Assembly (NCBI GenBank): GCA_963799675.1
Contig: CAWCXQ010000007.1
Coordinates: 118,077 to 182,076 of the forward strand
DNA: 64,000 nt
From: an uncultured Chloroflexia bacterium
GTDB taxonomy: Bacteria > Chloroflexota > Limnocylindria > QHBO01
Reading direction: 5' to 3'
The translations under genes and the position numbers were made by a program. Below are positions 7,544-51,893 of this stretch, piece after piece. Position 1 is the stretch's first letter; every line of letters begins with the position of its first letter. The notes beneath the pieces are model-generated. The model made no database searches and was not told the DNA's origin. It saw only the letters and a program-made list of their open reading frames with translations.

Positions 7544-8526
7544 TCAGGCGTAGACCTCCGGATTGACACAGCTCGGCAGTGGATCCCCGCGCAGGCCGGC
7601 GAGCAGGTTGGCAGCCGCGATCGCCGCCATCTTGCCGCGGGTCACCCGCGAGGCGGACGCAATGTGCGGCACCACCAGGCAGTTCTCGCAGGTGAGGAGC
7701 GGGTCGTCGGGCGCCATCGGCTCCGGATCGGTCACGTCGAGGGCGGCCGCAAAGATCTGGCCGTCGCGCAGGGCATCATAGAGCGCGGCCTGGTCGACCA
7801 CGGGCCCGCGCGACGTGTTGACGAGGATGGCGGTCCGCTTCATGCGCGCCAGGGCCGACGCGTTGATCAGGTGGCGAGTCTCATCGGTCAGGTTCGTGTG
7901 CAGGCTGACCATGTCGGAGGTGGCCAGCAGCTCATCCATCTCCACCCGGCGCGCATTCAGAGCGCGCTCCTCGTCGGGAGTGGCGGCGGTGGACGTCGTG
8001 GTACACGACCTTCATGCCGAAGCCGGAGGCACGCTTCGCCATCTCGCGCCCGATCCGGCCGAAGCCGACGATGCCGAGGGTTGCGCCGTGCAGGTCGACC
8101 CCCATCAGGAGCATCGGTCCCCACGTCTTCCAGCGGTCCGCCGCGGACGTAGCGTGATCCCTCGTCGATCCGCCGCGCGGCGGCCATCAGCAGGGCGAAG
8201 GCGAGATCGGCGGTCGTCTCGGTGAGCACGCCCGGCGTGTTGCCGGCCGGGATTCGACGGCGGGTGAGCTCCGGCACATCGAGGTTGTCAAAGCCGACCG
8301 CATAGTTGCTCACGACCTTGAGCTGCGGGCCGGCGGCATCGAGCAGCTCGGCGTCGACCCGGTCGGTGAGCAGCGTCAGCAGCCCGTCCATCCCGGCAGA
8401 CCGCCGCAGGAGCTCGTCGCGGGGCGGGGGCAGCTCGTCTGTCCAGAGGTCGAGCTCGCAGGCATCGCGAACCGGATCGAGGCCCTCGTCCGGAATGACA
8501 CGCGAGACGAAGACCCGCGGGCTCAC
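7544..8526 (-). CDS. D-2-hydroxyacid dehydrogenase (glyoxylate reductase/D-glycerate dehydrogenase), at least 2 frameshifts
   Basis: NYAVGFDN, NTPGVLTETTAD, GIVGFGRIG, NTSRGPVVD, LDVTDPEP and PHIASA spread over three frames. Confidence 0.9.
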
Positions 8527-9740
8527 GACACGCGCGCCGTCTGCGCGCTGGCCAGGTCGCCGGTGCGCTGCAGCCGGCCGAGCGACTCCGCGACGCGGTC
8601 GAGCGCGCGCTGACAGGTTCTCGCGAGAGTTGGCGTACGAGAAGCGCAGGTAGCCCTCCCCGTGCCGCCCGAACGCGGTGCCGGCCAGGCCGCAGACCCC
8701 GGCGTCGTAGAGCAGGTGGTCGGCGATCTCGACGCTCGTGCGCCCGAAGGAGCTGACGTTCGGGAACGCGTAGAAGGCGCCGTGCGGCAGTCGGCAGCTC
8801 AGCCCGTCGATCGCATTCAGCCCGTCGACGATGAGCGAGCGGCGCGCCGATGAACTCCTCGCGCATGGCGGTCGCATCGTCCTGCGGCCCGGTCAACGCC
8901 TCGATCGCACCGGCCTGCGCGAAGGCATTGGTGCACGAGACGCTGTTGATGATCAGCCTGCTGAAGGCCGGCACCAGCCATTCCGGCAGGATGCCGTAGC
9001 CGAGCCGCCAGCCGGTCATCGCGAAGGTCTTCGAGAATCCGTCAAGCGTGATCGTGCGGTCCGCCATGCCTGGCAGCGTCGCGATCGAGAGCGGCTCTCC
9101 CTCGTACTGCAGCCGCGCCGTAGATCTCGTCGGCGAGGACGACCAGGTCTCGCTCGACCGCGCAGGCCGGCGACGGCCGCGAGGTCCTCATCGGTCAGGA
9201 TCGACCCCGTCGGGTTGTGGGGCGAGTTGAGGATGACCAGCCGCGTGCGATCGGTCACCAGCGACGCGAGCTCGTCGACGTCGACCCGGAAGTCGTTCTC
9301 CTCGCGCAGCGGAGCGGCCACCGGCGTCCGCCCACGAAGGCGGCCATGCTCTCGTAGATCGGGAAGCCGGGGTTGGGGTAGATCACCTCGTCGCCGCGGT
9401 TCACGAGGGCCAGCATCGCGTAGAACATGATCGGCTTGGCGCCGGGCGTGACGACCACCCGCTCAGCGGAGTGTCTCGATCCCCTTCCAGCGCAGCACGT
9501 CGGCGGCGATCGCCTCCCGCAGCGGCTGCGATCCCGGGCGACGGCGGTGTAGTGCGTCATCCCGTCATTGAGCAGCGCGTCCGACGCGGCCTCGCTGACA
9601 TGGCGCGGGGTGTCGAAGTCGGGCTCCCCCATCTCGAGGTGGATGACGTCCCTGCCCGTCGCCTCCAGGGCGCGGGCGCGTGCCGCCGCCTCGAACGCGG
9701 TCTCGGTCCCGATCCGCTCCATGCGGGTGGCGAGTTTCAC
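8523..9740 (-). CDS. PLP-dependent aminotransferase class I/II, several frameshifts
   Basis: GEPDFDTP, VVTPGAKP, NSPHNPTG, DGFSKTFAMTGWRLG, GAFYAFP and YLRFSYA across frames. Confidence 0.9.
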
Positions 9741-13041: not shown

Positions 13042-13623
13042 TCAGCGCGTCGAGTAGGCGGCCGACCGTGCGCTGGCCGCCTCGGCGTCCAGGAGCGTCA
13101 GGCGTCGGTATTCGAAGTAGAGGTAGACCAGCGTGGCCGCGCCCAGCGCCGCGGTCACCGCTCCGAGCGCCAGCGAGAGGAGCGGGAAGAGGGGCGGAAT
13201 GAACGAGCCGCCGGCCAGGTTGAAGGCGAGGAGCGGAATGATGATCAGGAGCACGAGCAGGAGCTGGAGGAAATCGAGCATCCGGATCAATGACCACGCG
13301 AAGCCCCGCCGGCCGCGGGCGGCCTGGCTCCAGATCACCAGAACGATGATCGCGGTGAAGTTTCCGCCGCCCACCAGCGCGGCGATGATGAAGCCGACAT
13401 CCGCGCTGAAGTGCAGGAACGGGATCACGGTGGTCGTGAGGTAGTACGCGTAGTTCGGGATGTACATCAGCAGGAAGTAGACGTACAGGAAGAACGGAAC
13501 GCCCTTCAGCACAGCGACCAGCCACGTTTCGCGGCCGTAGAGCAGCCAGTTCATGAAATCCTCGACGAAGGCCAGCCCGCGGCTGAGCCTGCCTCGGCGG
13601 CGCGGGACGGAGTAGCTGGTCAT
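13042..13623 (-). CDS. Hypothetical multi-TM membrane protein in Rieske/cyt b operon
   Basis: MTSYSVPRRRGRL...; about 4 hydrophobic helices; start overlaps the cytochrome c stop. Confidence 0.75.
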   Translation of the reverse strand: MTSYSVPRRRGRLSRGLAFVEDFMNWLLYGRETWLVAVLKGVPFFLYVYFLLMYIPNYAYYLTTTVIPFLHFSADVGFIIAALVGGGNFTAIIVLVIWSQAARGRRGFAWSLIRMLDFLQLLLVLLIIIPLLAFNLAGGSFIPPLFPLLSLALGAVTAALGAATLVYLYFEYRRLTLLDAEAASARSAAYSTR

Positions 13624-14455
13624 CGGTCGCCTACTTGTGCGTCGAGGAGGAAGGTGATCACGGCCTGCAGCTGCGCGTCGCTGAGGGCGTCCGGTCCGTA
13701 CGCCGGCATGCCGGTGGCGGTGCCGCCGTTGTAGTTCTTCCCCGAGTCGCGGATCCACTGCTCGAGGAACTTCGCGTGGATCCGCCTTGTAGTCGGCCTG
13801 CAGCTTGGCGAGCCCGCTGATGGGTGTCGGCAGGTCGGTGACCGGCGCGCTTCCGATCTTCTGCAGGTTGGGATAGGTCCCCTCCACCCCGGCCAGGTCC
13901 TGGCCATGGCAGCTGGCGCAGGCTGGGGCCGTCGTCAGGTTATGGAAGACGTCATCGCCCGCGGCCGCCGTGTTCGGGGGTGGCGTCCCCGCCGGGGCGC
14001 TGGCCGCAGCCTCCTTGGCCCAGCTCTCGACCAGGGCGGTCAGCGCGTCGATCTGCTGCACGTTGAGCGCGCCGCCAACCTCCGCGCTCCAGGCGGGCAT
14101 CGGCGACTTGACGTTCCCCGACACCACGACCCCGCCGAAGCGGATGACGAGGTTGACGTAGTGCGAGTTCGCGGTCAGCTTCGTGGCGATGCTGGGCGAG
14201 TGGAGGTTCGGCGCCTTGACCCCCGGTATCGCCCACCTCGCCGCCCTTCCCCTCCGGCCCGTGGCACTGCGCGCAGCCGGGGTTGGCCGGGTGCGCGGCA
14301 TCGGCCTTCGCGAAGAGCTCCTTGCCGTAGGCGATCAGGTCGGCCTTCTCGGCGTCGAGCCCCGCGGTGCGCCGCGGCGTGTCGGTCACCCAGTAGAAGA
14401 CGGTGAACAGGGCGAGCGCGGTGATCAGCACCACCCCGAGCGTCTTGAGCCGCAT
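13620..14455 (-). CDS. Membrane-anchored diheme cytochrome c (2 frameshifts)
   Basis: N-terminal TM; CAQCH with distal MPAW; CASCH with distal MPAY. Confidence 0.85.
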
Positions 14456-15080
14456 CTACAGGCCGGTGCAGTGCTGCATCTGGTCCTTCTGGCGCGGGTC
14501 GAAGGTGACCGTCCCGACCGGAGGGCCCGTGATCTTCTGGCGCGTGTCGACGGTGTAGATCCCGCCCTTGTCGACCTTGGTGTCGAACCGATCCATCCCG
14601 CGCGGGGCCGGCCCGTCGCGCTTCTCGCCCAGCACGGTGTACTTGCTGCCGTGGCAGAGGCACTCGAACCAGTGGCTCTTGTCGCAGAGCTGCGGAATCT
14701 GGCAGCCGAGGTGCGGGCACTTGCGGTACAGCGCCAGGACCTTGGCGCCCGGGATCCGGCACGGGGGTCTTCTTTCCGTCGACCAGGTTCTCCGCGGCCG
14801 GCACGTTGACGAGGAAGAGGTTGGCGGGGCCGTAGATATAGGGCTGGCCCGTCGCCCAGTCGGGCGCGAGGGCGTTGATGGCGGCTGCCGTGCCGATCGG
14901 GATCAGCCCGCCGAGCCCGGACGTCACGTTCGGCCATAGGAAGGCCCAGGTGCCCCCGAAGAATTCGAGCGTCAGGATCCCGATCCCGATGCCGAGCATG
15001 CGCCGCATGAACGTGCGGCGGCTGATCTCGCCGATCGGTGGCCCGGGCACCTCGCCATAGGCCGGCGGATGCTGCGTCAT
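14456..15080 (-). CDS. Rieske iron-sulfur subunit of Rieske/cyt b complex (1 frameshift)
   Basis: Tat motif SRRTFM and TM; manual translation after the shift gives CPHLGC, CLCHGSKY and GPAPRGMDRF. Confidence 0.9.
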
Positions 15081-15694
15081 AGCGTGAAGAAGATCCCCTG
15101 CCAGGGCCAGACCCAGTTCCAGCCGGGCCCGCGGAAGAACATGCCGATGAAGGTCACCAGCAGGCCGCCCACCATGAGGCTCAGGAAGAAGACCCACGCC
15201 AGCTTGCGGTCGCGTGCCGCCTTGTAGGGCGACCGGTCGATGTAGGCGATGAGCGCGATGCCGATGAAGTAGACGGGCGGCAGGAAGATCCCCACCACCG
15301 TGCCGTTGAAGTAGGAGAGGAGCTCCTGCAGGCCGAGGAAGTACCACGGCGCCTTGGCGACGTGCGGCGTGACGGACGGGTTGGCCATCTGCTCGAGCGG
15401 CGCGCGAATGAAGAAGGCGGTGACCACCAGCAGGGCGCTGATCAGCATCGCCATCACGAACTCGGGGCGCAGGAGATGAGGCCAGGTGAGGACCGTCTCG
15501 TCGGGCCGCTTGTCGACCCGCACCATCGATTCCTGCTTCACGTACGCGAGCAGCCGGAACCGCTCCGTGCCCGGCACGCCGGGAGGGCCCGGCAGCTTGG
15601 GGCCCTGGGTGACCGGAGCCAGCGGAGCCTCTGCGGGTGCCTGCGATGGCGCGTTCTTGTCCGCGGTGCGGTTCGGTCGCTTCTCGATCGTCAT
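15077..15694 (-). CDS. Cytochrome b C-terminal part (subunit IV/PetD-like)
   Basis: WPHLL, ANPSVTP, KAPWYFLGLQELL, YIDR, RGPGWNW. Confidence 0.88.
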   Translation of the reverse strand: MTIEKRPNRTADKNAPSQAPAEAPLAPVTQGPKLPGPPGVPGTERFRLLAYVKQESMVRVDKRPDETVLTWPHLLRPEFVMAMLISALLVVTAFFIRAPLEQMANPSVTPHVAKAPWYFLGLQELLSYFNGTVVGIFLPPVYFIGIALIAYIDRSPYKAARDRKLAWVFFLSLMVGGLLVTFIGMFFRGPGWNWVWPWQGIFFTL

Positions 15695-41607: not shown

Positions 41608-42636
41608 GTGGCGGATTTGGAGCAGGAGAGCGACTGGGACGAGCCTGACGACCGGCGCTCGCGGAAGCGCGACCGCCTTGCCCGGCTGCTGAGCGTGGCG
41701 TCGATCCTCTACTCGCGCGGCAGCACGGAGGCCGGGGTCCCGGTGACCGAGATCGCCCGCCTGACCGATATGACCACGCGGACCGTCTATCGCGACATCC
41801 GGGCGCTCGACGAGGAGCTCGGAGTGCCGGTCTTCCAGGCCGGGCGCGGCCGCTTCGGGATCGACCGCAAGTACTTCCTCCCTCCCCTGCGTCTCTCGGT
41901 GCCCGAGGCGATCGTCCTCTTCCTCGCCGCGCGGCTGATCGCGCGCTGGTCCGATGAGTACGACGCGGCGGTCGTCAGTGCCTTCACGAAGCTGGCCGAT
42001 CTGCTCCCTCAGCCGATCGCTCGCCATGTCGCCGCCACCATGCTCTCGGTTGGCGAGCATGGCCGCAATGAGCCGTTCATGCGCAACTTCGCGACGGTGG
42101 CGCGCGGCTGGGCCGAGGGCCGGGTGGTCCAGATCGACTATGAAGCCGCCGGGGCGGAACGGAAGCGGACCCGGGTGCGGCCATACCTGCTCGAGCCCGA
42201 TGCCGCCAGCCGCAATGTGTACCTGATCGGCCACGACGAGACCGCCGATGCGATGCGCACCTACAAGGTCGAGCGGATCCGATCCTCCACCCTCAGCGGT
42301 GACCGCTACGAGATCCCGGCCGACTTCGATCCCGATCGCTGGCTTGCCCACTCGTGGGGGATCTGGTCGTCGGACACCACCCCGACCGCTCGGATCCGGC
42401 TCCGGTTCGACGGCGACGTTGCGCATCGGGTGCGCGAGTCGGTCTGGCACCGGTCGCAGGAGCTCGTCGAGCTCCCGGAGGGCGGCGTCGAGCTGACCGT
42501 CACGGTAGCCGGCATCGTCGAGATCCGGCCCTGGGTGCTGTCATGGGGCCAGTCGGTCGAGGTCCTCGAACCGCCCGAGCTGCGAGACTCGGTGGCGCGC
42601 TCGGTGGCTGCGGCGGCTGCGCGCTATGGCGACTGA
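41608..42636 (+). CDS. WYL-domain transcriptional regulator (HTH-WYL-WCX)
   Basis: RTVYRDIRAL, VRPYLL, VYLIG, RTYKVERI, WVLSWG..VEVLEPPELR. Confidence 0.92.
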   Translation: MADLEQESDWDEPDDRRSRKRDRLARLLSVASILYSRGSTEAGVPVTEIARLTDMTTRTVYRDIRALDEELGVPVFQAGRGRFGIDRKYFLPPLRLSVPEAIVLFLAARLIARWSDEYDAAVVSAFTKLADLLPQPIARHVAATMLSVGEHGRNEPFMRNFATVARGWAEGRVVQIDYEAAGAERKRTRVRPYLLEPDAASRNVYLIGHDETADAMRTYKVERIRSSTLSGDRYEIPADFDPDRWLAHSWGIWSSDTTPTARIRLRFDGDVAHRVRESVWHRSQELVELPEGGVELTVTVAGIVEIRPWVLSWGQSVEVLEPPELRDSVARSVAAAAARYGD

Positions 42637-43285
42637 GGTCGAATCGAAGTTCCGAGCGGCCGATCCGCACACCCTGCAACGGCTGGCCACCGTCGACCGG
42701 CTCGGCCCGGCGCGGCTGGGTCCGGCCAGCGTGGCGGATGAGGTGGACCGCTACCTCGACACGCCGGATGGGCTCCTCGCCGCCGCCGGGTGGGCGTGCC
42801 GGCTGCGGACTCGCGCGGGCCGCACGATCGTCTCCCTGAAGGGGACCGCGGCCCAGGCGCTGGGGGACGTCTCGGGCGTCCACCGTCGACCAGAGGTCGA
42901 GGGACCCGCCACCGCCGCACTCGACCCCGGCACGTGGCCGGCGAGCGCCGCGCGTGACCTGCTGGTCGAGCTGACCCGTGGCGCCGTGCTCGAGCAGGGG
43001 CTGCGCCTCGACCAGCGACGGACCGAGCGAGCGGTGGCCCTCGGCGGGCACGAGGTCGCGACGCTCAGCCTCGACGAGGTTCAGGTCTTCGACCGGAAAG
43101 GCGGCTCGGCGGGCTGGCTGCTCATCGTCGAGCTCGAGCATGCGGACGGCGCGCGCGACCGGGAGCCCGCGCTTGCCCCGGTCGCCGATGCGCTGCGTGC
43201 GGAGCCCGGCCTGGTCCCGGACCCGCTCACCAAGCTCGAGCACGCCACCAGGCTCATCGCGGAGTCACGAGCAGCGGCCGGATGA
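42626..43285 (+). CDS. CYTH (triphosphate tunnel) domain protein
   Basis: EVESK (ExExK), DRYLDTPD, CRLR, LSLDEV, VELE, TKL. Confidence 0.85.
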   Translation: MATEVESKFRAADPHTLQRLATVDRLGPARLGPASVADEVDRYLDTPDGLLAAAGWACRLRTRAGRTIVSLKGTAAQALGDVSGVHRRPEVEGPATAALDPGTWPASAARDLLVELTRGAVLEQGLRLDQRRTERAVALGGHEVATLSLDEVQVFDRKGGSAGWLLIVELEHADGARDREPALAPVADALRAEPGLVPDPLTKLEHATRLIAESRAAAG

Positions 43286-45468
43286 TCCGCAGCGGCCCGG
43301 CGCGCATCGCCCTCGTCGAGCTCGTGTGCCTCGGGATCGGCGTCGCGATCTTCGGCTACGTGGGCTGGGATGGGGCCATGTGGGACCCGCGCTACCAGCT
43401 CGGCCTGCACCTCGCCGCGATCGCCGCCCTCGGCGGCCTGGTGGCGCTGGCGCTGATGGGCCGCCCGCTGCCGCGGACTCGGCTCGATACCCTGGTCCTG
43501 CTGCTCCTGATCGCGTTCGGGATCGCGACACTGGCAGGAGAGAACCGAGGGCTCGCCGTCCGCGCCCTCGCGGCGATCGTGGCGACCGCGGCGATGCTGC
43601 CGGTCGCGCTGGTGGTCGTGCGGCAGCGCCCCAGCCTGACCGCGGCAGCGGTCACCATCCCCATCCTGGGCCTCGCCGCCGGCGACCTGCTGGTCATGCT
43701 CCTCCGTCGTCTGAACTGGTACCTCGCGGGAGGCCCGGGCCTCCTTCCTCCGGTGCGGCTGCCAAACGAGGGAAGCCCGTTCGGCTCCGTCGCGGTCGCG
43801 CCCTTCGTGCTCCTTGCGGCCCTGGCGCTCACGCTGCTGATCGACGGGCGAAGAGTGCGACACTGGATCCAGGCTGGCCTGGTGGCGGTCGGCGTACCGC
43901 TCACCCTGCTCTCCGGCTCGCGCTCGGCGTGGCTCGCGATCGGAACGGCCGGGCTGATCCTCGTCGCCCCCCGCGTCCGCCACCTCCGCTCGCCCGCCCG
44001 CTGGACCGTTCGCCACGCAGCGATCGGTGCCGCTGCCGTGGTCGCCCTCGCGGCGGCGGCGGTCTTCGTCGCGCCGCGCCTGACCGCAATCAGCTCGCTC
44101 GTCTACCGAAGCTACCTGTGGCGCGACACCCTCGCGGCGTGGAGCGCAAACCCGCTCCTCGGGATTGGGCCGGGGACGATGCCCTTCGCCCGACAGGCGG
44201 CGGCACCGGACCTGACCTTCCCGGTCAGGCAGCCGCACTCCCACGATCTTGCTCTCGGCCTGCTCGGTGACGCGGGCCTCCTTGGGCTGGCGCTCGGCGC
44301 GCTGCTGTTGCTCAGCTTCGTGGTCATCGCCGGCCCGTGGCGGTCACGCTCGTTCGCCGGCCGCGCCGCCTTCGCGACCCTTGCCGGATTCGCGGTCGCC
44401 GGCCTCTTCGAGGACCTCACCTTCCTGCCGAACTTCAACCTCCTGGTCGTGCTCCTCGTCGCGGTCGCCCTGGCCGATGCCGGAGCAGTCTCGTGGCGAC
44501 CCTGGCGCATCCCGCTCCCCGCCCTCGTCGCCGGAGGGGTCGCCGCGTCGGCGCTCCTTGCGGCAGTGATCGCCGGCGACGCTGCCGCCCTCGTCTACCG
44601 AATGGGGACCGATGCCGCCGGCAACCACGACTGGGATGCCGCCACCGCCTTGCTCGTGCGCTCCGAGCAGATCGATCCCTGGTATCCGGCGACGCCCAAG
44701 GCGTTGGCCGTGGCCGCCGATGCGGCGGGCGACGGTGACCTGGCGCGCGCAGCGGCCGAGCGTGCGCTCCAGCTCAACGCGGGCGACGGCCCCTCCTGGA
44801 CCAACCTCGCAATCCTCTGCCAACGAGCCGGTGATACCGGCTGCGCGGGGCACGCGGCGGACCGGGCGGTGGCGACCGCGACCCTGGGCGGCCGCGAGCT
44901 GATCAACGCGGCGCTCGTCTACGACGGCATCGGGCGGCCCGAGGACGCCGATCGCGCGTATCGGCTCTCGCTGCTGACGAACCGCTATACGGCCCTCGCG
45001 TTCAAGTGGCCGCGCCAGGTGAGCGTCGGCGACGAGAGGGTCGCGGAGCAGGACGAGACCGATCGAGAGGTGAACGTCGTCGTCGCGCAGCAGGCCCAGG
45101 GCGAGACGGTCGATCCGGCCGCGTTTCGGGAGCCACTCGCACATGCGCTTGCCCTTGCCCTGGTCGGCGATCGGGACGCTGCGGAGCTGGCGCTGGCCTC
45201 GACCATCGAGGCGCAGCCGACGTCGCTCGCAGCCTGGGACCTCGCGGCGGTGCTCCGTCAGCACTGGGGCACTGACGCCGCACACGCCCGCGCGGTGGCG
45301 GAGGCGCTGCACAACGCGCCGTTCTCGACCGCCGCACCGCGAGCGCCTGACCTCGTCTTCGACATCGCTACTTTCCGCGCCTATCCCCGCGACGGGCTGG
45401 TCCGCTCGGCGGAACGGCTCCTGCCCCATCGGCAGTGGCCGTGGGCGCTCGAGCCCCTGCTGCCCTGA
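43282..45468 (+). CDS. O-antigen ligase (Wzy_C) family membrane protein with TPR-like C-terminus
   Basis: LSGSRSAWL, R..LW, NPLLGIGPG, HSHD, many TMs, then helical repeats. Confidence 0.85.
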   Translation: MIRSGPARIALVELVCLGIGVAIFGYVGWDGAMWDPRYQLGLHLAAIAALGGLVALALMGRPLPRTRLDTLVLLLLIAFGIATLAGENRGLAVRALAAIVATAAMLPVALVVVRQRPSLTAAAVTIPILGLAAGDLLVMLLRRLNWYLAGGPGLLPPVRLPNEGSPFGSVAVAPFVLLAALALTLLIDGRRVRHWIQAGLVAVGVPLTLLSGSRSAWLAIGTAGLILVAPRVRHLRSPARWTVRHAAIGAAAVVALAAAAVFVAPRLTAISSLVYRSYLWRDTLAAWSANPLLGIGPGTMPFARQAAAPDLTFPVRQPHSHDLALGLLGDAGLLGLALGALLLLSFVVIAGPWRSRSFAGRAAFATLAGFAVAGLFEDLTFLPNFNLLVVLLVAVALADAGAVSWRPWRIPLPALVAGGVAASALLAAVIAGDAAALVYRMGTDAAGNHDWDAATALLVRSEQIDPWYPATPKALAVAADAAGDGDLARAAAERALQLNAGDGPSWTNLAILCQRAGDTGCAGHAADRAVATATLGGRELINAALVYDGIGRPEDADRAYRLSLLTNRYTALAFKWPRQVSVGDERVAEQDETDREVNVVVAQQAQGETVDPAAFREPLAHALALALVGDRDAAELALASTIEAQPTSLAAWDLAAVLRQHWGTDAAHARAVAEALHNAPFSTAAPRAPDLVFDIATFRAYPRDGLVRSAERLLPHRQWPWALEPLLP

Positions 45469-45471
45469 GGC

Positions 45472-46152
45472 CTACAGCTCGAGCGGAAGGCGCTGGATGA
45501 GCGACAGGCTGGGCCGCCCACGAGCGGGGGCTGGCGTGATCGGGGCACGAAGCCACGCGTCGCCCGATGGCCCTGACCGGTAGCGGGCGTCGAGCCGGCG
45601 CGCGGAGAGGCCATCGAGCCCGATGCGGGCCAGCGCTTCCGCGAGCAGCGTGCCCTCGCCGGGGTAAGCGTGACCCACGGCGGCCCGATCACCGTCCGGC
45701 AGGACCTCCTGCAGCCGTTGCCTCCGGGCCTGGTACGGGCGCCGCGCCCAGGAGTCCGCATCGCACCAGAGCAGGTCGCTGGCCACGTAGGCCGGACGCC
45801 CGCCGTGCCGCCCTGCCTCGAGGCGCCTCCGAAGCAGCGAGCTGTCCGGGCGGCCGCCGCGATCCAGCACGAGCAGCGTGCCGTCGAGCACCACGCCATC
45901 GGCGAGGAGCTGGAGCGGGAGCTCGCGGAGCTCCGGGAAGGCCGCGAGCGCATCGCTCAGGCCGTGGGCCTGGAGACGCAGCGCCCCCGCCTCGATGAAG
46001 GCGATCGCTCGCAGGCCGGGCCACCAGGGCTCGAAGAGGTACGCAGGATCGTCGAACGGGGCGTCTACCGCTGCCGGCTGCATCGGCGCCACGCGAGCCG
46101 GGAGGCGGCCGGATTCGGATGGGATGGAGAGCGGGAGCTGCTCGTCCGCCAC
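45472..46152 (-). CDS. Degenerate ATP-dependent DNA ligase adenylation domain (LigC/LigD-like)
   Basis: VAPM, FEPWWPGLRA (in place of EPKxDGxR), FPEL, LDGTL, SDLL, DGLSARR, YRSG, WLR; no OB domain. Confidence 0.75.
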   Translation of the reverse strand: MADEQLPLSIPSESGRLPARVAPMQPAAVDAPFDDPAYLFEPWWPGLRAIAFIEAGALRLQAHGLSDALAAFPELRELPLQLLADGVVLDGTLLVLDRGGRPDSSLLRRRLEAGRHGGRPAYVASDLLWCDADSWARRPYQARRQRLQEVLPDGDRAAVGHAYPGEGTLLAEALARIGLDGLSARRLDARYRSGPSGDAWLRAPITPAPARGRPSLSLIQRLPLEL

Positions 46153-46160
46153 GCGCTCGG

Positions 46161-47000
46161 CTAGGCGGTCTTCCGGCGTCGGCGCGGCGCCTCTTCCGAC
46201 TTCGCAGTGACCTCGCGCGCATCGCGGGCGGCGGCGACCGAGGCTTCGAGGGCCGCCATCAGGTCGGCGATGTTCGTCGCCTCGACGCGCTGGGCCGGCT
46301 CGGGCGCCTCGCCCGCCACCTTGCGCTCGATGACCGCCATGAGCGCCTGGCGGTAGTCGTCGCGGTAGGCATCGGCGCTGAAGTCACCAGTCATCGAAGC
46401 GACCAGCTGCTCCGCCATCTTCTTCTCTGCGGGCTTGATCTCGACCTGGTCCTCGGGCAGGTTCAGGTCCTCGATGGCCCGGACCTCGTCGGGCCAGTGG
46501 AGGGTGGTGAGGAGCATCGTGCTGGCGTAAGGGTTGAGCGCGGCCAGCTGCTCGCGGTCCTTCAGCACGATCTTGCAGATGGCGGTCTTGCCCTGCTCGG
46601 CGAGGACCGGCTGCAGCAGGTAGAAGGCCTTGCGTGCCGATCGGCTCCGGCTCCAGGTAGTAGGCCTGCTTCACGAACTGCGCGCCCTTGGCCCTCGCGG
46701 CGCGCATCCACGAACATCTCGATCTCGATGGCCCGCATGGTCTTCAGTGGGACGGAATCGATGTCCTCCTCGGTCGACGACCACGTACTTGCCCTTGCTC
46801 CACTCATAGCCGCGCACCGTCTCGCTGCGCGGTATGACCGCGTCGTGGTAGGGGCAGTAGATCTTCATCTGGATCCGGTTCAGGCAGCTGGCGTGCAGCA
46901 GGTTGAAGCCGATCCCGCCCTGCTCGGTCGCCAGGTAGAGCTTGACCGGGATCGTCACCAGTCCGAACTGGATCGCCCCCCGCCACATCGATCGTGCCAT
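46161..47000 (-). CDS. ku: NHEJ protein Ku (frameshifted)
   Basis: RSMWRGAIQFGLVTIPVKLY, VRGYE, YYLEP, LHWPDEVR, YRDDY, DLMAALEAS. Confidence 0.93.
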
Positions 47001-47060
47001 TGGTCTCCTGCGTGCTTCGTGCCCTCAGATCAGCCGCGGGCGGTGACTATACAACGCCCG

Positions 47061-47076
47061 TGCAAGACCTCCGCCA
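47061..47076 (-). promoter_or_regulatory. sigma54-like -24/-12 motif upstream of ku
   Basis: TGGCGGAGGTCTTGCA (GG-N10-GC), 60 nt upstream of the ATG. Confidence 0.5.
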
Positions 47077-47160
47077 TGCCCGGAAGGTACGCCGGAGGTA
47101 CCAGAAGCCTGACCGATGCGGCCATTGCCCTCCGCGGTGCGCCGCGACACACTGGCCCTT

Positions 47161-47580
47161 GTGAACGAGACCGACGCGGCGGCCGAGCAGGCGGCCCAGA
47201 CCGATCAGCTGCGCGCCTATGTGCTCGAGGACGATCCCGATATCGCTGCGCTCGAGGCGGACATTCTCCGAGACGAAGGCTTCACGGTCGTGACCTGCAC
47301 CCGCATCGTGGAGCTCGGCGACCTGATGGACGTGGCCCTCCCGCACCTGCTCGTCGTCGACGTCATGCTCCCCGACGGCGACGGGGGCAACATCACCGAG
47401 CTCCTGCGGCGCGCGTGGCCAGGGATCCCAGTCGTCATCGTCAGCGCGGCGAGCCGAGAACGGCTGGCAGAGCTGGCCCCGATGGGACCTGTCGTGGCCA
47501 AGCCATTCGACATCGAGGCGTTTGCGTCCGCCGTCCGCGAGGCGCTCGACGACGCGCGAGATATCCGCTCGGCGTCGTGA
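47161..47580 (+). CDS. Single-domain response regulator
   Basis: LEDD, VDVMLPDGDG, IVSA, KPFD. Confidence 0.88.
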   Translation: MNETDAAAEQAAQTDQLRAYVLEDDPDIAALEADILRDEGFTVVTCTRIVELGDLMDVALPHLLVVDVMLPDGDGGNITELLRRAWPGIPVVIVSAASRERLAELAPMGPVVAKPFDIEAFASAVREALDDARDIRSAS

Positions 47581-47585
47581 TCCGC

Positions 47586-48053
47586 TCAGTGGGGCCCGGT
47601 GACGACCACCAGCTCGCTCCGCGACTGCTCACCCTCGCGCTGCAGCCGGTAGCGATGCTCGATCGTGACGCTCGCCGAGAGCATGGCGCTGACCGGGCAG
47701 TACCGGGTCGCCGAAAGCTCGATCGAACGCCGCAGCGCCTCGGGCTCCACCGCTCCGCTGACCCGGTGCTCGACGCTGATGCGGACGAAGACCTTCGGGT
47801 GCTCGGCCGCGGAGTCGCCGCTCACGGCGATCTGGTAGCCGGTCGGCCGTTGCCGCTTCTTGCGCAGGATCGTCGCCACGTCCATCGAGGTGCAGCCGGC
47901 GAGCGCCGCCAGGAGCGCCTCCTTGGGTCCCGCCGCGCCACGCCTGCCCTCGTCGCCGGCGGCGTCGAGCCGCAGCTGGTGCCCGGAGCCGGTCGTCACG
48001 TCGACTGCCAACCCGGCCGGGTCGACCAGGGTGGCCAGGATCTCGTGTGGCAC
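47586..48053 (-). CDS. OsmC/Ohr (YhfA-like) protein
   Basis: PKEALLAALAGCTSMDV, HPKVF, YCPVS. Confidence 0.9.
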   Translation of the reverse strand: MPHEILATLVDPAGLAVDVTTGSGHQLRLDAAGDEGRRGAAGPKEALLAALAGCTSMDVATILRKKRQRPTGYQIAVSGDSAAEHPKVFVRISVEHRVSGAVEPEALRRSIELSATRYCPVSAMLSASVTIEHRYRLQREGEQSRSELVVVTGPH

Positions 48054-48085
48054 CGGACGACTCTAGCAGCCGGCGCGAGAGTCCC

Positions 48086-48838
48086 ATGCGCGTGATCAGG
48101 CCGGCTGCGAGTGCCGCGGCCGAGCACCGCCGCAACATGATGATGGCGGTTGCGATGCTCTCGGTCGCGGTCGTGGCGGCCGGACTCGTGCTGGTCGGTC
48201 CCATTCCGGACAGCCGCGCCGCTACCGTGGCTGGGCTCGCGGCAGCGGTCGGACTCGGGGTCGGCGGCGCCTGGATCCTTCGCGCCCTGCAGCGAGATCC
48301 CGCGAGCATCGACGCGAGCGATATCGAGCGCCTGCTGGCGCCTGTCTTCGACGACAGCTACGCCCTGGTGGTGCGGCCGCGCCTCCCGGGCGTCTCGAGC
48401 GACCTGGCCGCGATCCTGGTGGGCCCCGCCGGCCTCAGGGGGCTGATCGCTCGTCGCTGGCGGGGCCGGTACCGGGTTCGTGGCAAGGGCTGGCAATACG
48501 ACACGCGCGGGCGCCAGGGCTTCATCGCCTGCCGCACGAATCCGTCCTTTGACGCAGCGGCGATCCGTGATGGCCTGGGTCGCTGGGCGGCGGGGGCGGG
48601 TCTCGGTCAGCTCCCCATCGAGTCCGCGATCGTCTTTCCGCGGGCATACTCTCGCCTCATCCTCGAGGAGCCCGCGGACGAGATCGTCACCCCGGACAAC
48701 ACCCCGTGGTGGGCGCATCGCATCGGCCGCACCCAGCGCCTCGATGCCGCCCGCTCGGCACGGGTGGTGGAGGCGGTGCTTGCGGCCGCCGACGCGCCAT
48801 CCGAGCGTCCGAGCGCCCTGCGGCGCGTCACCCCCTAG
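48086..48838 (+). CDS. 2-TM protein with NERD-like domain
   Basis: Two TMs, then DLAAILVGPAG, WRG, NP. Confidence 0.6.
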   Translation: MRVIRPAASAAAEHRRNMMMAVAMLSVAVVAAGLVLVGPIPDSRAATVAGLAAAVGLGVGGAWILRALQRDPASIDASDIERLLAPVFDDSYALVVRPRLPGVSSDLAAILVGPAGLRGLIARRWRGRYRVRGKGWQYDTRGRQGFIACRTNPSFDAAAIRDGLGRWAAGAGLGQLPIESAIVFPRAYSRLILEEPADEIVTPDNTPWWAHRIGRTQRLDAARSARVVEAVLAAADAPSERPSALRRVTP

Positions 48839-48841
48839 CGG

Positions 48842-49447
48842 CTAGGCCTCGACCGGCGGCTCGGGCCGCAGCCAGCGCTGGGCCGTCTTTTCGTCCAGCA
48901 CATCGGCCAGCAGCTCGTCGCGCTGCTCATCGTCCTCGACCACGATCACGTGGGCCATCGTGCGCTGCAGCGCGACCGCCGGCGCGGTCAGGCTGATCTC
49001 CGGATGGGCCGTGCTGCTGACGCTGACGTCGGTCATCGGCACGAAGCGATCGGAGACGTTGAGCAGGCCGTCGGCGGGACGGCTCCCCTGGGCCACGTGC
49101 ACGGTACCGAGCAGCCGGAAGGGCGGCAGCGCGACCTGGGCCCGCACCGGGCGCTTTGCGATCCGCATCTCGGGTCGCGCCTCGGCATCGGTCTCCGCGA
49201 CGACGACGAACAGGAGCTCATCGATCGAAACCAGCACGTGTGGCACCGGAATGCCCCCGGCCGGGTCGCCGTACTCGGTCACGGTCGCCCCTTCGATCAC
49301 CATGTGGGAGGTCGGCTGCAGGTTCATGATGTCGGTGACCCGCGAGAACCGGGTCAGCATCGTGCCGGAGACCCGATACGCGGCGGTGAAGAGCTGCGCG
49401 TGGACGGAGCGGGCCGGGTTGCCAGAATCTCCTGAGAACAGGTCCAT
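48842..49447 (-). CDS. Hypothetical protein with internal duplication (DUF6812-like)
   Basis: YRVSGTM..RVTDIMN and FRLLGTVHV..RPADGLLN halves. Confidence 0.65.
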   Translation of the reverse strand: MDLFSGDSGNPARSVHAQLFTAAYRVSGTMLTRFSRVTDIMNLQPTSHMVIEGATVTEYGDPAGGIPVPHVLVSIDELLFVVVAETDAEARPEMRIAKRPVRAQVALPPFRLLGTVHVAQGSRPADGLLNVSDRFVPMTDVSVSSTAHPEISLTAPAVALQRTMAHVIVVEDDEQRDELLADVLDEKTAQRWLRPEPPVEA

Positions 49448-49525
49448 GGCCGGCATCCTAGCAGTGGGTCGCCGAGCGTCAATGCACGCGGACTGGCCCA
49501 ATCCGCCCCAAACGCCCCGCCCGCT

Positions 49526-51232
49526 TTACTCCTCCAGGCTGCCGACCGCTGCAATCCGTTCGGTCTCGCCCCCGGCGCCTGTGGCGAGCAGGATGCGACC
49601 GGTCGCCTGGGCCTCGAACAGCTTCTCGACGGTCGCGAGCTCGTCGATCTCGGCCGGCGTCTTGTCGTCGCGGATCCTGGCGATGCGCGGAAATCGGAGC
49701 GCGAACCCCGAGTTGTGGCGAGCCGAGCGCTGGATGCGGTCGAAAGCGATCTCCACGACGACCTCCGGCGCAACGGTCCGATAGCGGCCGAAGTCGCGGA
49801 GCGTGATCGCCTGGAAATGCTCGGTCATGGTCGCGATCTCGGCATCGGTCAGGCCCGTGTACGCCTTCCCGATCGTCAGCAGCCGGTCTCCGGACCGAAC
49901 CGCGAAGGTGTAGTCGCTGAGGACTCCATGCCGCTTGCCGTGGCCCCATTCGACCCCGACCACGACGCAGTCAAGGGTCGCCAGAGCGCGCTTCAGCTTC
50001 AGCCAGCCCAGCCCGCGGCGCCCGGGCTGATACGCGGAGTCGGGGTCCTTGATCATCAGTCCCTCGTTGTGCCGATCACGCGCATCGTCGAACTGCGCGT
50101 CCACCTCGGCCGCGCTGCGCGCCGTGGCAAGATTCGAGTAGAGGAATCGCTCCCCGGTTCGATCCGGCAGGCGCAGCGCCTGCAGGGCGGCGCGCCGTTC
50201 GCGCAGGGGCGTTTCGAGCAGGTCCGCTCCCTCGGCGTGCAGCAGATCGAACGCAACAAGCGCCACCGGCACCCGAGCGAGGAGCTCAGCCGATGGCTGC
50301 ACGCGGCCCAGCCGCGTCTGGAGGCTGGCAAAGTCGAGGACCGATCCTTCCCGGTAGGGCACCAGCTCGCCGTCCACCACGAGCGTCTCGTCGAGATCGC
50401 CCGCCGCCGCCACGATCTCGGGGAAGGAGCCGCCGATCTCGTTGAGGTCGCGGCTGAACAGGTGGATCTCCCCTGGAGCGCAGTGCAGCTGGGCGCGGAT
50501 GCCGTCGTACTTGTCCTCGATCCACGCCTCATCGCCGACCCGCCGCATCACCTCGCCCGCATCCGCGACCGGTGTCGCAAGCATGAACCGGATCGGGCGC
50601 CCAACATGCAGGGCGGCAGCCGCCAGCTCCCCGCGGCGCGCCAGGAGCGCTGCCTCGCCCGGATCCGCGACCAGCATGTGCGCGCGGCGGACGGCGGCGA
50701 TATCGGCCTCGAAGGCCGCCGCGATTGCCTCCTCGAGCAGCCCATCGCGCAGCCCGATGCGCATCTCGCGGCTGGCGATGCGCGCCAGGTAGCGGGCCTC
50801 CGCCGCGCTGGCGCGCTCGAAGAGCGAAGCCATCAGCGCCGTCCGCGCTTCGGCACCACCGGCGGCTGCCATGCCGCGAAAGCCGGCATGGACGTCGGCG
50901 AGCGTGAGCCCATCTCCCGGCGCAGGGCGGTCGAGCAGCTCGGCGGCAACGTCTCCGAAGTCGGAGTGGCGCTGATAGGACTCGCCCATGCTGCGTTGAT
51001 CCGCGCCGCTCGCGGCGGCCAGGGCGGCGCTCTGCTGAACCCAGCCGAGCCCCAGACGATCGCCGGGGTCTGCGAGCGGGCGACCGGCGAAGAACGTGCA
51101 GGCGACCGGCAGGTCGGCGTCGCTCAGGTCGCGCAGGTAATCGGCCAGGACCTCCTGCTTGCGCAGCTTGCTGCGGGTGGCTGCGACCGCATCGGCCACC
51201 TCGGCAAATCGTGCGAACGGTGATGAGCCCAT
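49526..51232 (-). CDS. ATP-dependent DNA ligase (LigB type, full length)
   Basis: EDKYDGIRAQ, VDGE, AFDLL, EGLMIK, WLKLK, ALRFPR. Confidence 0.95.
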   Translation of the reverse strand: MGSSPFARFAEVADAVAATRSKLRKQEVLADYLRDLSDADLPVACTFFAGRPLADPGDRLGLGWVQQSAALAAASGADQRSMGESYQRHSDFGDVAAELLDRPAPGDGLTLADVHAGFRGMAAAGGAEARTALMASLFERASAAEARYLARIASREMRIGLRDGLLEEAIAAAFEADIAAVRRAHMLVADPGEAALLARRGELAAAALHVGRPIRFMLATPVADAGEVMRRVGDEAWIEDKYDGIRAQLHCAPGEIHLFSRDLNEIGGSFPEIVAAAGDLDETLVVDGELVPYREGSVLDFASLQTRLGRVQPSAELLARVPVALVAFDLLHAEGADLLETPLRERRAALQALRLPDRTGERFLYSNLATARSAAEVDAQFDDARDRHNEGLMIKDPDSAYQPGRRGLGWLKLKRALATLDCVVVGVEWGHGKRHGVLSDYTFAVRSGDRLLTIGKAYTGLTDAEIATMTEHFQAITLRDFGRYRTVAPEVVVEIAFDRIQRSARHNSGFALRFPRIARIRDDKTPAEIDELATVEKLFEAQATGRILLATGAGGETERIAAVGSLEE

Positions 51233-51287
51233 CAGCTCGAGTCTATCCGGCCTTGACGGCGGCACCGACGCGACGCAGGCTACCCCC

Positions 51288-51893
51288 ATGGCCTTCCCGT
51301 GGTCGAAGAAGCCTCCGCCCGAGGTCGCGGACCGGATCCCGCCGGGCCAGGTGCTGACCGAGAAGTTCCCCGTCCTGCACTTCGGCCGCGTCCCCGACTA
51401 CGGCGATCTGGCGGGCTGGACGTTTCGGGTCTTCGGCGAGGTCGAGGAGCCGTTCAGCCTGAGCTGGGCGGAGGTTCGCGGCCTGCCCGCCGCGCAGGTC
51501 ACGCTCGACATCCACTGCGTGACCCGCTGGTCGAAGCTCGACACCACATGGGACGGGGTCCCCTTCAGCCACATCGTCGAGGTCGCACGGCCAAAGGCCG
51601 GCGCGGGCTTCGTGATCTTCCATTCCGAGGCCGGCTACACCGCCAACGTGCCGATCGAGACCACGGCGGATCCGCAGTGCCTCCTCGCGTGGAGCTACGC
51701 CGGCGAGCCGCTCAGCGCCGAGCACGGGTTCCCGCTGCGAGCGATCGTGCCCGGCAAGTACTTCTGGAAGAGCGCGAAGTGGCTGCGCGGGATCGAGTTC
51801 AGCATCGAGGACCGGCCCGGGTTCTGGGAGCAGAACGGCTACAGCAACAGTGCCGACCCGTGGCGCGAGGAGCGCTACTCCGGCGGCTGGTGA
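51288..51893 (+). CDS. Sulfite oxidase-like molybdopterin oxidoreductase (YuiH-like)
   Basis: RIPPGQ, DIHCVTRWSK, HGFPLR, YFWKSAKW, GFWE. Confidence 0.9.
   Translation: MAFPWSKKPPPEVADRIPPGQVLTEKFPVLHFGRVPDYGDLAGWTFRVFGEVEEPFSLSWAEVRGLPAAQVTLDIHCVTRWSKLDTTWDGVPFSHIVEVARPKAGAGFVIFHSEAGYTANVPIETTADPQCLLAWSYAGEPLSAEHGFPLRAIVPGKYFWKSAKWLRGIEFSIEDRPGFWEQNGYSNSADPWREERYSGGW

Follow-up and report, generated by a model that had tools for sequence, protein, structure and literature searches.

A conserved lysine-less relative of the LigD ligase domain is encoded directly after ku in Limnocylindria

RESULTS

A ligase-like gene without lysine codons follows ku

In a 64,000-nucleotide stretch of DNA from an uncultured Chloroflexia bacterium of the class Limnocylindria (assembly GCA_963799675.1, contig CAWCXQ010000007.1, positions 118,077 to 182,076; hereafter the window), the gene for the end-joining protein Ku is followed on the same strand by an open reading frame (ORF) that encodes a ligase-like protein. 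We refer to the latter as plig, for pseudo-ligase gene, and number all positions within the window.

45472 to 46152, minus strand: plig, 226 amino acids (aa) plus stop, GTG start; nucleotidyltransferase (NTase) domain of the LigD/LigC type, lysine-free and OB-less
46161 to 47000, minus strand: ku, broken in this assembly by three single-base insertions (46775, 46693/46694 and 46632/46635); intact in all relatives examined

Eight nucleotides separate the TAG stop codon of ku (46161-46163) from the GTG codon of plig. The ORF listing and these coordinates agree with an earlier note, made from the sequence, which had described an uninterrupted 226-aa frame at this distance from ku. The GC content of the region is 71 to 76%, and the listing contains spurious long ORFs in all frames. 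Since such ORFs abound here, the open frame of plig is little proof of a gene by itself, and the proof is supplied by its homologs.

The sole Pfam match of plig is PF01068, the ligase adenylation domain (residues 37-201; 29.8 bits versus a cut-off of 26.2), and the Pfam scan yielded no match to the OB domain, PF04679. The top NCBIfam models were those of LigD ligase domains, with all 10 models scoring far under their cut-offs (84.1 versus 227.75 for TIGR02779 and 97.1 versus 989 for NF007210). Because the TIGR02779 match covers model positions 3 to 182 of 302, that is, the NTase half only, the OB half is absent, and only some 22 residues follow motif V. An AlphaFold2 model computed with a 115-row alignment had a mean predicted local distance difference test score (pLDDT) of 87.8 and a predicted template modeling score of 0.82, with pLDDT values under 50 at residues 1-12 and 213-226. 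In Foldseek searches of the PDB, this model matched exclusively NTase domains of ATP-dependent ligases (E values of 6e-14 to 2e-11 and query TM-scores of 0.66-0.72 for the top matches), including LigD structures 6NHX, 1VS0 and 6NHZ at 30-32% identity. A profile of 115 family members was aligned to the same Mycobacterium tuberculosis LigD ligase domain structures with an E value of about 1e-19. ESM Atlas matches were confined to Chloroflexota clusters, named 'hypothetical' or 'ligase domain'. plig thus has the NTase, or adenylation, domain fold of DNA ligases, and both the LigC/LigD-type scaffold and the missing OB domain proposed in the earlier note are confirmed.

The catalytic residues of DNA ligases are replaced

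The alignment to 1VS0 places the degenerate nucleotide-binding motif of plig as follows.

46009 to 46035, minus strand: degenerate motif I, FEPWWPGLR (plig residues 40-48), in invariant alignment columns

The E-G-K-W-D-G-Y-R of LigD motif I pairs with E-P-W-W-P-G-x-R in the profile alignment. In plig, Trp stands in place of the catalytic Lys and Pro in place of the Asp, with the Glu, the second Trp, the Gly and the Arg retained. Motif III, DGE in LigD, reads DG[T/W] in the family and DGT in the window copy. Lys-to-Arg changes affect motif IV (GVIAK in LigD, xLSAR in the family, DGLSAR in the window copy) and motif V (SWVK in LigD, AWLR in the family, WLRAP in the window copy). FE.WW.G is found in 115/115 aligned members. 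The window protein contains 27 Arg and 0 Lys, and 84 of the 115 members are Lys-free; the alignment of these 115 sequences has no column with more than 12 Lys, no conserved-Lys column and no invariant His. The substitutions claimed beforehand (EPWWPG, DGT, DGLSAR and WLR) therefore stand in the alignment to 1VS0/6NHX and, as the altered motifs are invariant across the family, so does the argument that these multi-base changes are not sequencing errors. The marks of an active ligase, namely the motif I Lys (KxDG), the DGE, EGxxxK and WxKxK sequences of motifs III to V and an OB-fold domain, are all missing from plig.

An excerpt of PMC8656161 gives LigD residues E479, K481, R486, R501, E530 and K618 as nucleotide contacts or catalytic residue, E479 and R486 being described there as adenine and ribose contacts. 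By our own count on the alignment, only E479 (E41) and R486 (R48) of these six are retained in plig, and the equivalents of K481, R501, E530 and K618 are altered; E41 and R48 are invariant across the family alignment. As the protein has no lysine, a lysyl-AMP intermediate is excluded. With the adenylated Lys, most nucleotide contacts and the OB domain lost, plig is predicted to be unable to form ligase-AMP or to seal DNA.

The two invariant residues, matching adenine and ribose contacts in that excerpt, could mean that ATP, NAD or a related nucleotide still fits the pocket and is used without lysyl-AMP, which would make plig a cryptic enzyme or a nucleotide sensor. We regard this as very improbable, given that the protein offers neither a Lys nor an invariant His, that two Trp and a Pro occupy the Lys/Asp site, that the equivalents of R501, E530 and the motif IV and V Lys are altered, and that the OB domain, which would close the pocket, is missing.

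plig is conserved and appears to be under purifying selection

Among 8000 candidate homologs scored, 1440 matched plig with E values of 0.001 or less. The 120 best, which were listed, are about 201-244 aa long and 61-96% identical to plig, and their source names include Candidatus Limnocylindria, 'LigD', 'ATP-dependent DNA ligase' and 'hypothetical'. We also sampled 200 genomes of the same class, 66 of which belong to the family of the window (f1); tallies over these genomes, here and below, include unpublished genomes. A full-length ortholog with an E value of 4.8e-69 or less was detected in 61 of the 66 f1 genomes. Three others (G159, G162 and G192) gave partial or split matches at 62-65% identity, and G042 and G174 gave weak matches only.

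Ratios of nonsynonymous to synonymous substitution rates (dN/dS) were calculated by the Nei-Gojobori method for plig and ku in the same genome pairs. In the two closest pairs, L010-L016 and L015-L017, they were 0.077 and 0.106 for plig and 0.127 and 0.179 for ku. Compared with 95-99% alike contigs of three DNA runs, plig shows no indel, and of the 17 strain differences listed within it, 16 fall on third codon positions by our count (59 more differences over the whole stretch are unlisted). plig is thus, by these measures, under purifying selection rather than decaying.

One could still argue that plig is a decaying pseudogene whose frame is open by chance, as stops are rare at 71-76% GC, long spurious ORFs abound and the adjoining ku is frameshifted in the assembly. 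We give this explanation next to no credence, considering the motif in 115/115 sequences, the orthologs in 61/66 genomes, the dN/dS values of 0.08-0.11, the 16/17 third-position differences and the absence of indels; moreover, the frameshifts of ku are absent from four sequencing runs and fit a genome-wide excess of frame breaks (see below). The motif in homologs, the ortholog count, the strain differences and the dN/dS values refute it as far as sequence can. Orthologs with KxDG next to a neutrally evolving copy, which the earlier note had named as the signs of a decaying gene, were looked for and not encountered: homologs keep both the EPWWPG-type motif (115/115) and the linkage to ku (29/29 loci), and the closest pairs indicate purifying selection.

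plig is tied to ku

In 29/29 best-matching loci of relatives, ku lies directly upstream of plig on the same strand and is always in a single frame; two of these loci, L010 (G087) and L013 (G096), are from unpublished genomes. The GTG start of plig lies 6-25 nucleotides past the ku stop in 32 of 33 f1 genomes, and in the 33rd, L046, the script found no start. The conserved linkage put forward earlier is thus real, and from the gene order and the short gap we argue that plig is co-translated with Ku. The plig-linked type of ku occurs in 30/30 f1 genomes sampled. A second, more canonical Ku is present in 11 of them, extra partial Ku matches were found in G202, and in 18 of the 30 the Ku matches are limited to the plig-linked type.

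An active-looking ligase occupies the same place in a sister family

In 10 of the 11 loci inspected in a sister family (f2), the gene after ku encodes a ligase (class A) that is about 350-380 aa long and has intact KWDG, DGE, EGIVAK and WLK motifs; the 11th locus has LigD only. The class A ligase (e.g., L052:12388-13530) sits in the same slot right after ku as plig, is 35-38% identical to it and has the same extreme C-terminal tail. Unlike plig, it keeps the four motifs and an OB-like C-terminal region, whose alignment to TIGR02779 extends to position 301 of 302, and it looks like the active ancestor state. As a ligase with active motifs fills the same post-ku slot in the sister family, we view plig as an enzyme turned pseudoenzyme. 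Most simply, a ligase linked to ku would have been stripped of its catalytic residues and OB domain while its terminal peptides were retained. In a third family (f3), six loci (L049, L051, L070, L071, L073 and L075) have the order ku, pseudo-ligase, LigD.

A profile search over 1.84 billion representatives returned 57 proteins with E values of 1e-30 or less, and the 150 best were classified. Thirty-two carry xWWPG (class B, to which plig belongs), 38 have another non-Lys residue at the Lys position (one of them, P0133, being a class-B-like fragment), 69 have the Lys, and 11 are fragments without motif I. No fused form of plig occurs among the 32 class-B representatives of these 150, whose lengths range from 79 to 323 aa.

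Using a lysine-less, OB-containing query set, we found 80 named genome loci. Short lysine-less genes make up 52 of them (class C), and none of the 52 has ku within 3 kb. Nearly all carry Chloroflexota labels, the exceptions being L088 (Sulfomarinibacteraceae) and L095 (Saccharimonadales). Class C proteins resemble plig in being OB-less and of similar size, in lacking the motif I Lys and in having an N-terminal QLSLxL and a C-terminal LP[LF] tail, but they differ in reading FEP[STNAW]WGG at motif I, in keeping DGE and in their distance from ku. Their genes (L077-L136 and others, 52 in number; also L053 and L067-L069) encode about 245-265 aa. In the four class C loci whose surroundings were checked, the neighbors include genes for peptidase S9, ABC transporters and hydrolases, and nothing there points to DNA repair.

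Another five of the 80 loci (L126, L129, L144, L145 and L153), from Dormibacterota-named records and two 'Chloroflexi' records, have a ligase homolog with a Lys-to-Ala change (F[DE]VAW) 128-173 nucleotides after ku. These five proteins of about 335-346 aa keep the OB region and end in LPRLP[LFI], and their sequences mark them as a second kind of Ku-linked dead ligase. Since this form also follows ku, ligase-derived pseudoenzymes adjoining ku are not confined to one lineage.

The genome of the window (G000) also encodes a second lysine-less, NTase-only ligase homolog of about 237 aa at about 120.2-120.9 kb of contig C8 (L008), just after a DEAD-box helicase gene. It is likewise OB-less and has lost the motif I Lys, but it differs from plig in reading FEPAWRG at motif I, DGI in place of DGE and WLQ in place of WLK.

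The ends of plig, predicted to be disordered, carry conserved peptides

Two conserved peptides coincide with the low-pLDDT ends of the model.

46120 to 46140, minus strand: N-terminal conserved peptide QLPLSIP (plig residues 5-11), with Q5, L6 and L8 invariant or nearly so; predicted disordered
45475 to 45516, minus strand: C-terminal conserved tail RPxLxLIQRLPLEL (plig residues 213-226), with P214, L216, L218, L222 and P223 invariant; predicted disordered

Q[LM]xLx occurs within the first 20 residues of 108 of the 115 family members and LxLIxRLP[LF] within the last 25 residues of 111; the tail is shared by classes A, B and C. One genus of orthologs begins VTGDQLSLPL. According to an excerpt of PMC12309361, QLSLPL is the tight-binding clamp peptide of Hda, and the consensus is QL[S/D]LF. 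P0148, a lysine-less relative that retains the OB domain, starts MPQLSLF. We also inspected the DNA polymerase IV (Pol IV) tails of three relatives: QLTLF occurs in that of L158, the L157 tail starts with TLF, and no such motif is present in the tail of L159. The QLTLF of L158 indicates that the usual clamp motif is in use in this lineage. Like Hda and other clamp binders, plig thus has Q-L-x-L-x-[LI] at the extreme N-terminus in a disordered tail, exactly QLSLPL in some orthologs; the likeness is limited to six residues, and the window copy reads QLPLSI. Both terminal peptides have the appearance of docking motifs. The N-terminal one resembles the hexapeptide class of clamp-binding sequences and may bind the sliding clamp. 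These peptides are more likely to recognize a general partner, for example the clamp, than Ku.

Class C invites a different explanation, in which plig would be a clamp-tethered sensor of nicks or ends that does its main work without Ku: the NTase remnant would bind a 5'-phosphate end or a nick, the peptides would keep the protein on the clamp and the linkage to ku would be secondary. The same architecture and peptides recur in class C at 52/52 loci without ku within 3 kb, next to peptidase and ABC transporter genes, and the N-terminal motifs fit forms of the clamp-binding consensus, with QLTLF in Pol IV of the relatives. In plig's own class, however, linkage to ku with a gap of 6-25 nucleotides is nearly universal, and plig sits between ku and LigD in f3; moreover, DNA binding by an OB-less protein would have to be assumed. 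On balance we hold this explanation to be unlikely.

A possible link to Ku through the folded domain

The earlier note had proposed that the pseudo-ligase acts as an adaptor, an end-binder or a Ku regulator. As a direct test of such roles, the fold with Ku that it suggested was computed for two Ku chains plus the partner, a cognate pair from the relative G108, with alignments for both chains. The score was 0.54 (runs of 0.57, 0.54 and 0.45) and that of the best of 3 controls 0.01, which weakly favors Ku binding. Of 157 solved complexes and 215 mismatched pairs, 116 and 2, respectively, passed the mark used for this score; those that passed with 0.60 or less comprised just 18 of the 157 solved complexes and both of the mismatches. 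Agreement of contacts between runs was at least 51%, and the pLDDT of the partner was at least 75.

An excerpt of PMC13717202 names D522, K579 and L580 as residues of the M. tuberculosis LigD ligase domain that the C-terminus of Ku touches, and it describes weaker Ku-LigD binding with L580E. By our count on the alignment, K579/L580 align to a plig helix with the invariant residues R143, R144 and L147. This correspondence is a lead to a possible Ku-facing surface of plig.

The same surface could also serve a brake. The dead domain might occupy the C-terminal arm of Ku or the DNA end, compete with LigD and so hold back mutagenic end joining, in growing cells for instance. The data in favor are those that also speak for a helper: plig retains an NTase surface like that of LigD and is linked to ku, a canonical LigD encoded elsewhere is a possible competitor, and the M. 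tuberculosis Ku C-terminus binds the ligase domain in the excerpt cited above. The data do not separate helper from inhibitor. An inhibitor made in step with Ku throughout the family, including the 18 of 30 genomes whose Ku matches are of this type only, would nevertheless be an odd design, and the conserved terminal peptides suggest that further partners are recruited. We therefore see a brake as a minority possibility, if the strongest of the alternatives considered here.

Other end-joining genes and the neighborhood of plig

The search for LigD POL and PE domains called for in the earlier note found the canonical parts in the genome. G000 has a LigD with PE-LIG-POL order on contig C10 (59.6-62.2 kb), further Prim-Pol matches on C11 and C19, and another ligase on C11; Prim-Pol is found in 66/66 f1 genomes. 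The genome also encodes a second ku (C10:101083-101271), which is closer to the canonical type and runs off the end of its contig. With these canonical parts present, plig adds to LigD and does not replace it. Within the window, a further ligase gene lies near plig.

49526 to 51289, minus strand: LigB-type ATP-dependent DNA ligase (PF04675, PF01068 and PF04679), intact and in conserved synteny

The intact LigB-type ligase that had been noted 2.5 kb away is thereby substantiated, its N-terminal, NTase and OB domains all being matched. It scored 247.9 with TIGR00574 (cut-off, 217.8) and has a single-frame 575-aa match to relatives. It is a candidate for the sealing enzyme. A tblastn search of the window with the ORFs of relatives was swamped by shadow ORFs, and it shows only that three long neighboring genes are in a single frame. 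Between ku and the LigB-type ligase lie a gene for a 263-aa protein without family match (48047-48838, plus strand) and one for a DUF6812 protein (48842-49501, minus strand), both of which keep their places in relatives. A PafC-like HTH-WYL-WCX regulator, 80% identical in relatives and syntenic, and a CYTH-domain protein are encoded at 41608-43285 on the plus strand, 3-5 kb from ku-plig.

A conserved promoter-like element precedes ku.

47042 to 47069, minus strand: promoter-like element upstream of ku, TTGnnn, 8 nucleotides and a TG-preceded TAnnnT-like hexamer; conserved in relatives

The pattern is present in 29 of 33 ku-upstream regions (mean of 0.19 and maximum of 2 in 200 shuffles); the 33 include the unpublished L010 and L013, which are both among the 29. 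A weight-matrix scan of G000 scored the ku site at 28.5 bits and the next match at 14.8. As the matrix yields just the ku site in this genome, there is no sign of a regulon. A sigma-70 consensus scan of 45200-47400 returned 0 promoters and 0 terminators. Contigs of the X15 RNA library cover ku from 46183 to 46988 and none lies over 45400-46140, although contigs cannot show absence.

Frame breaks in the window copy of ku are probably assembly errors

The window copy of ku, which had been treated as intact in the earlier note, is not: it consists of four frame pieces with three frame changes caused by one-base insertions, and the starting frame stops at codon 110. Contigs of runs X1, X2, X3 and X15, which are 95-99% alike, each lack a single letter at every one of the three sites (46775, 46693/46694 and 46632/46635). 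Without these three letters, ku is open over 278 codons and 86% identical to the Ku of relatives. The assembly as a whole is rich in such breaks. The LigD gene on C10 (G000:C10:59598-62242) is in three frames, and two of the three Prim-Pol genes are split. In a crude scan of the phase of third-position GC content, stop-less frame switches numbered 230 per Mb in the assembly and 50 per Mb in 358 kb of relatives; the scan gives a rough rate only, and the shifts of ku itself are too closely spaced to be flagged. The completeness of the assembly is 65%, at a normal genome size. Because the near-identical contigs of four runs lack the breaks and the assembly abounds in frame breaks, we read those of ku as assembly errors with good confidence. 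A real, strain-specific loss of ku may be involved instead, X1, X2, X3 and X15 not being from the same strain as the window.

Similar breaks were seen elsewhere in the window. Two genes, one for a 2-hydroxyacid dehydrogenase (7544-8877) and the other for an aminotransferase (8288-9740), are each spread across more than one frame. At 13042-15347 on the minus strand, cytochrome c matches fall in two overlapping ORFs with stop-less frame switches at 13801, 14248 and 14773, and this region is probably another indel-broken gene. Gene calls from this genome need care.

DISCUSSION

plig is a real, conserved pseudo-ligase coupled to Ku: it has kept the NTase fold, has lost the catalytic residues and appears to descend from an active-looking ligase. 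As for its mode of action, we favor, with some reserve, the view that it is a non-catalytic paralog of the post-ku ligase that serves as a third, structural end-joining subunit made together with Ku. In this mechanism, plig would be produced with Ku from one operon, and its folded NTase domain would bind Ku, probably through the surface equivalent to the one on LigD that accommodates the C-terminal arm of Ku. Other factors would be recruited by the peptides at its two ends, which are predicted to be disordered, with the sliding clamp as a candidate partner of the N-terminal one, and sealing would be left to LigD or to the nearby LigB-type ligase. We infer binding to Ku, binding to the clamp and any effect on repair from the data above.

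Several observations weigh against this view. The all-pair median dN/dS is 0.35 for plig (0.32 for ku); as synonymous sites are near saturation across all pairs, only the closest pairs are informative, and the closest, L010-L016, includes an unpublished genome (L010, G087). Binding to Ku is argued from gene order and from one weak fold score, for which no contacts were reported, and binding to the clamp from the likeness of motifs. Class C has the same N- and C-terminal peptides at 52/52 loci with no ku within 3 kb; because it carries them away from ku, they probably do not bind Ku, and the core role of the protein may be independent of Ku. The N-terminus of the active-looking class A is less clamp-like.

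A more specific form of the structural-subunit view may be considered, if only tentatively. Limnocylindria, and Dormibacterota in a variant form, might carry out end joining with a three-part machine in which plig holds Ku and its terminal peptides hold the dimeric clamp, or the clamp and a second partner, so that break repair is coupled to clamps left on DNA. If true, bacterial Ku would for the first time be connected with the replication clamp, and prokaryotic nonhomologous end joining (NHEJ) would have its first scaffold subunit. A full-text literature search, whose scope did not extend to subscription journals, found no paper on a lysine-less Ku-linked ligase paralog. In the sole paper that it matched to both Limnocylindria and DNA repair, the terms NHEJ, LigD, ligase and end joining do not occur.

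The standard account of bacterial NHEJ involves two proteins, Ku and LigD. The family described here as a whole encodes a conserved, catalytically inactive ligase domain that is under selection and is probably translated in step with Ku. If plig organizes or regulates the repair complex, it would clearly exemplify the conversion of an enzyme into a pseudoenzyme, the active ancestral form of which is still found in a sister family. Such proteins are annotated automatically as 'LigD' or 'ATP-dependent DNA ligase', labels that would introduce errors into surveys of metabolism and repair in these soil bacteria, which are abundant.

Of the known systems, the LIG domain of LigD (M. tuberculosis 1VS0, 6NHX and 6NHZ; TIGR02779 and NF007210) is the best match of plig in both sequence and fold, and it is also encoded with ku. 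plig differs from it in having no Lys, altered motifs III to V and no OB domain, in standing alone as a 226-aa protein and in its conserved disordered terminal peptides. In role, a parallel may lie in eukaryotic end joining, whose non-catalytic scaffold subunits XRCC4, XLF and PAXX are not ligase-derived. The likeness of plig to these proteins is restricted to the proposed role, that of a non-enzymatic organizer of Ku and ligase at the break, and involves no homology; should plig organize or regulate the repair complex, prokaryotes would have an equivalent of the eukaryotic non-enzymatic end-joining scaffolds.

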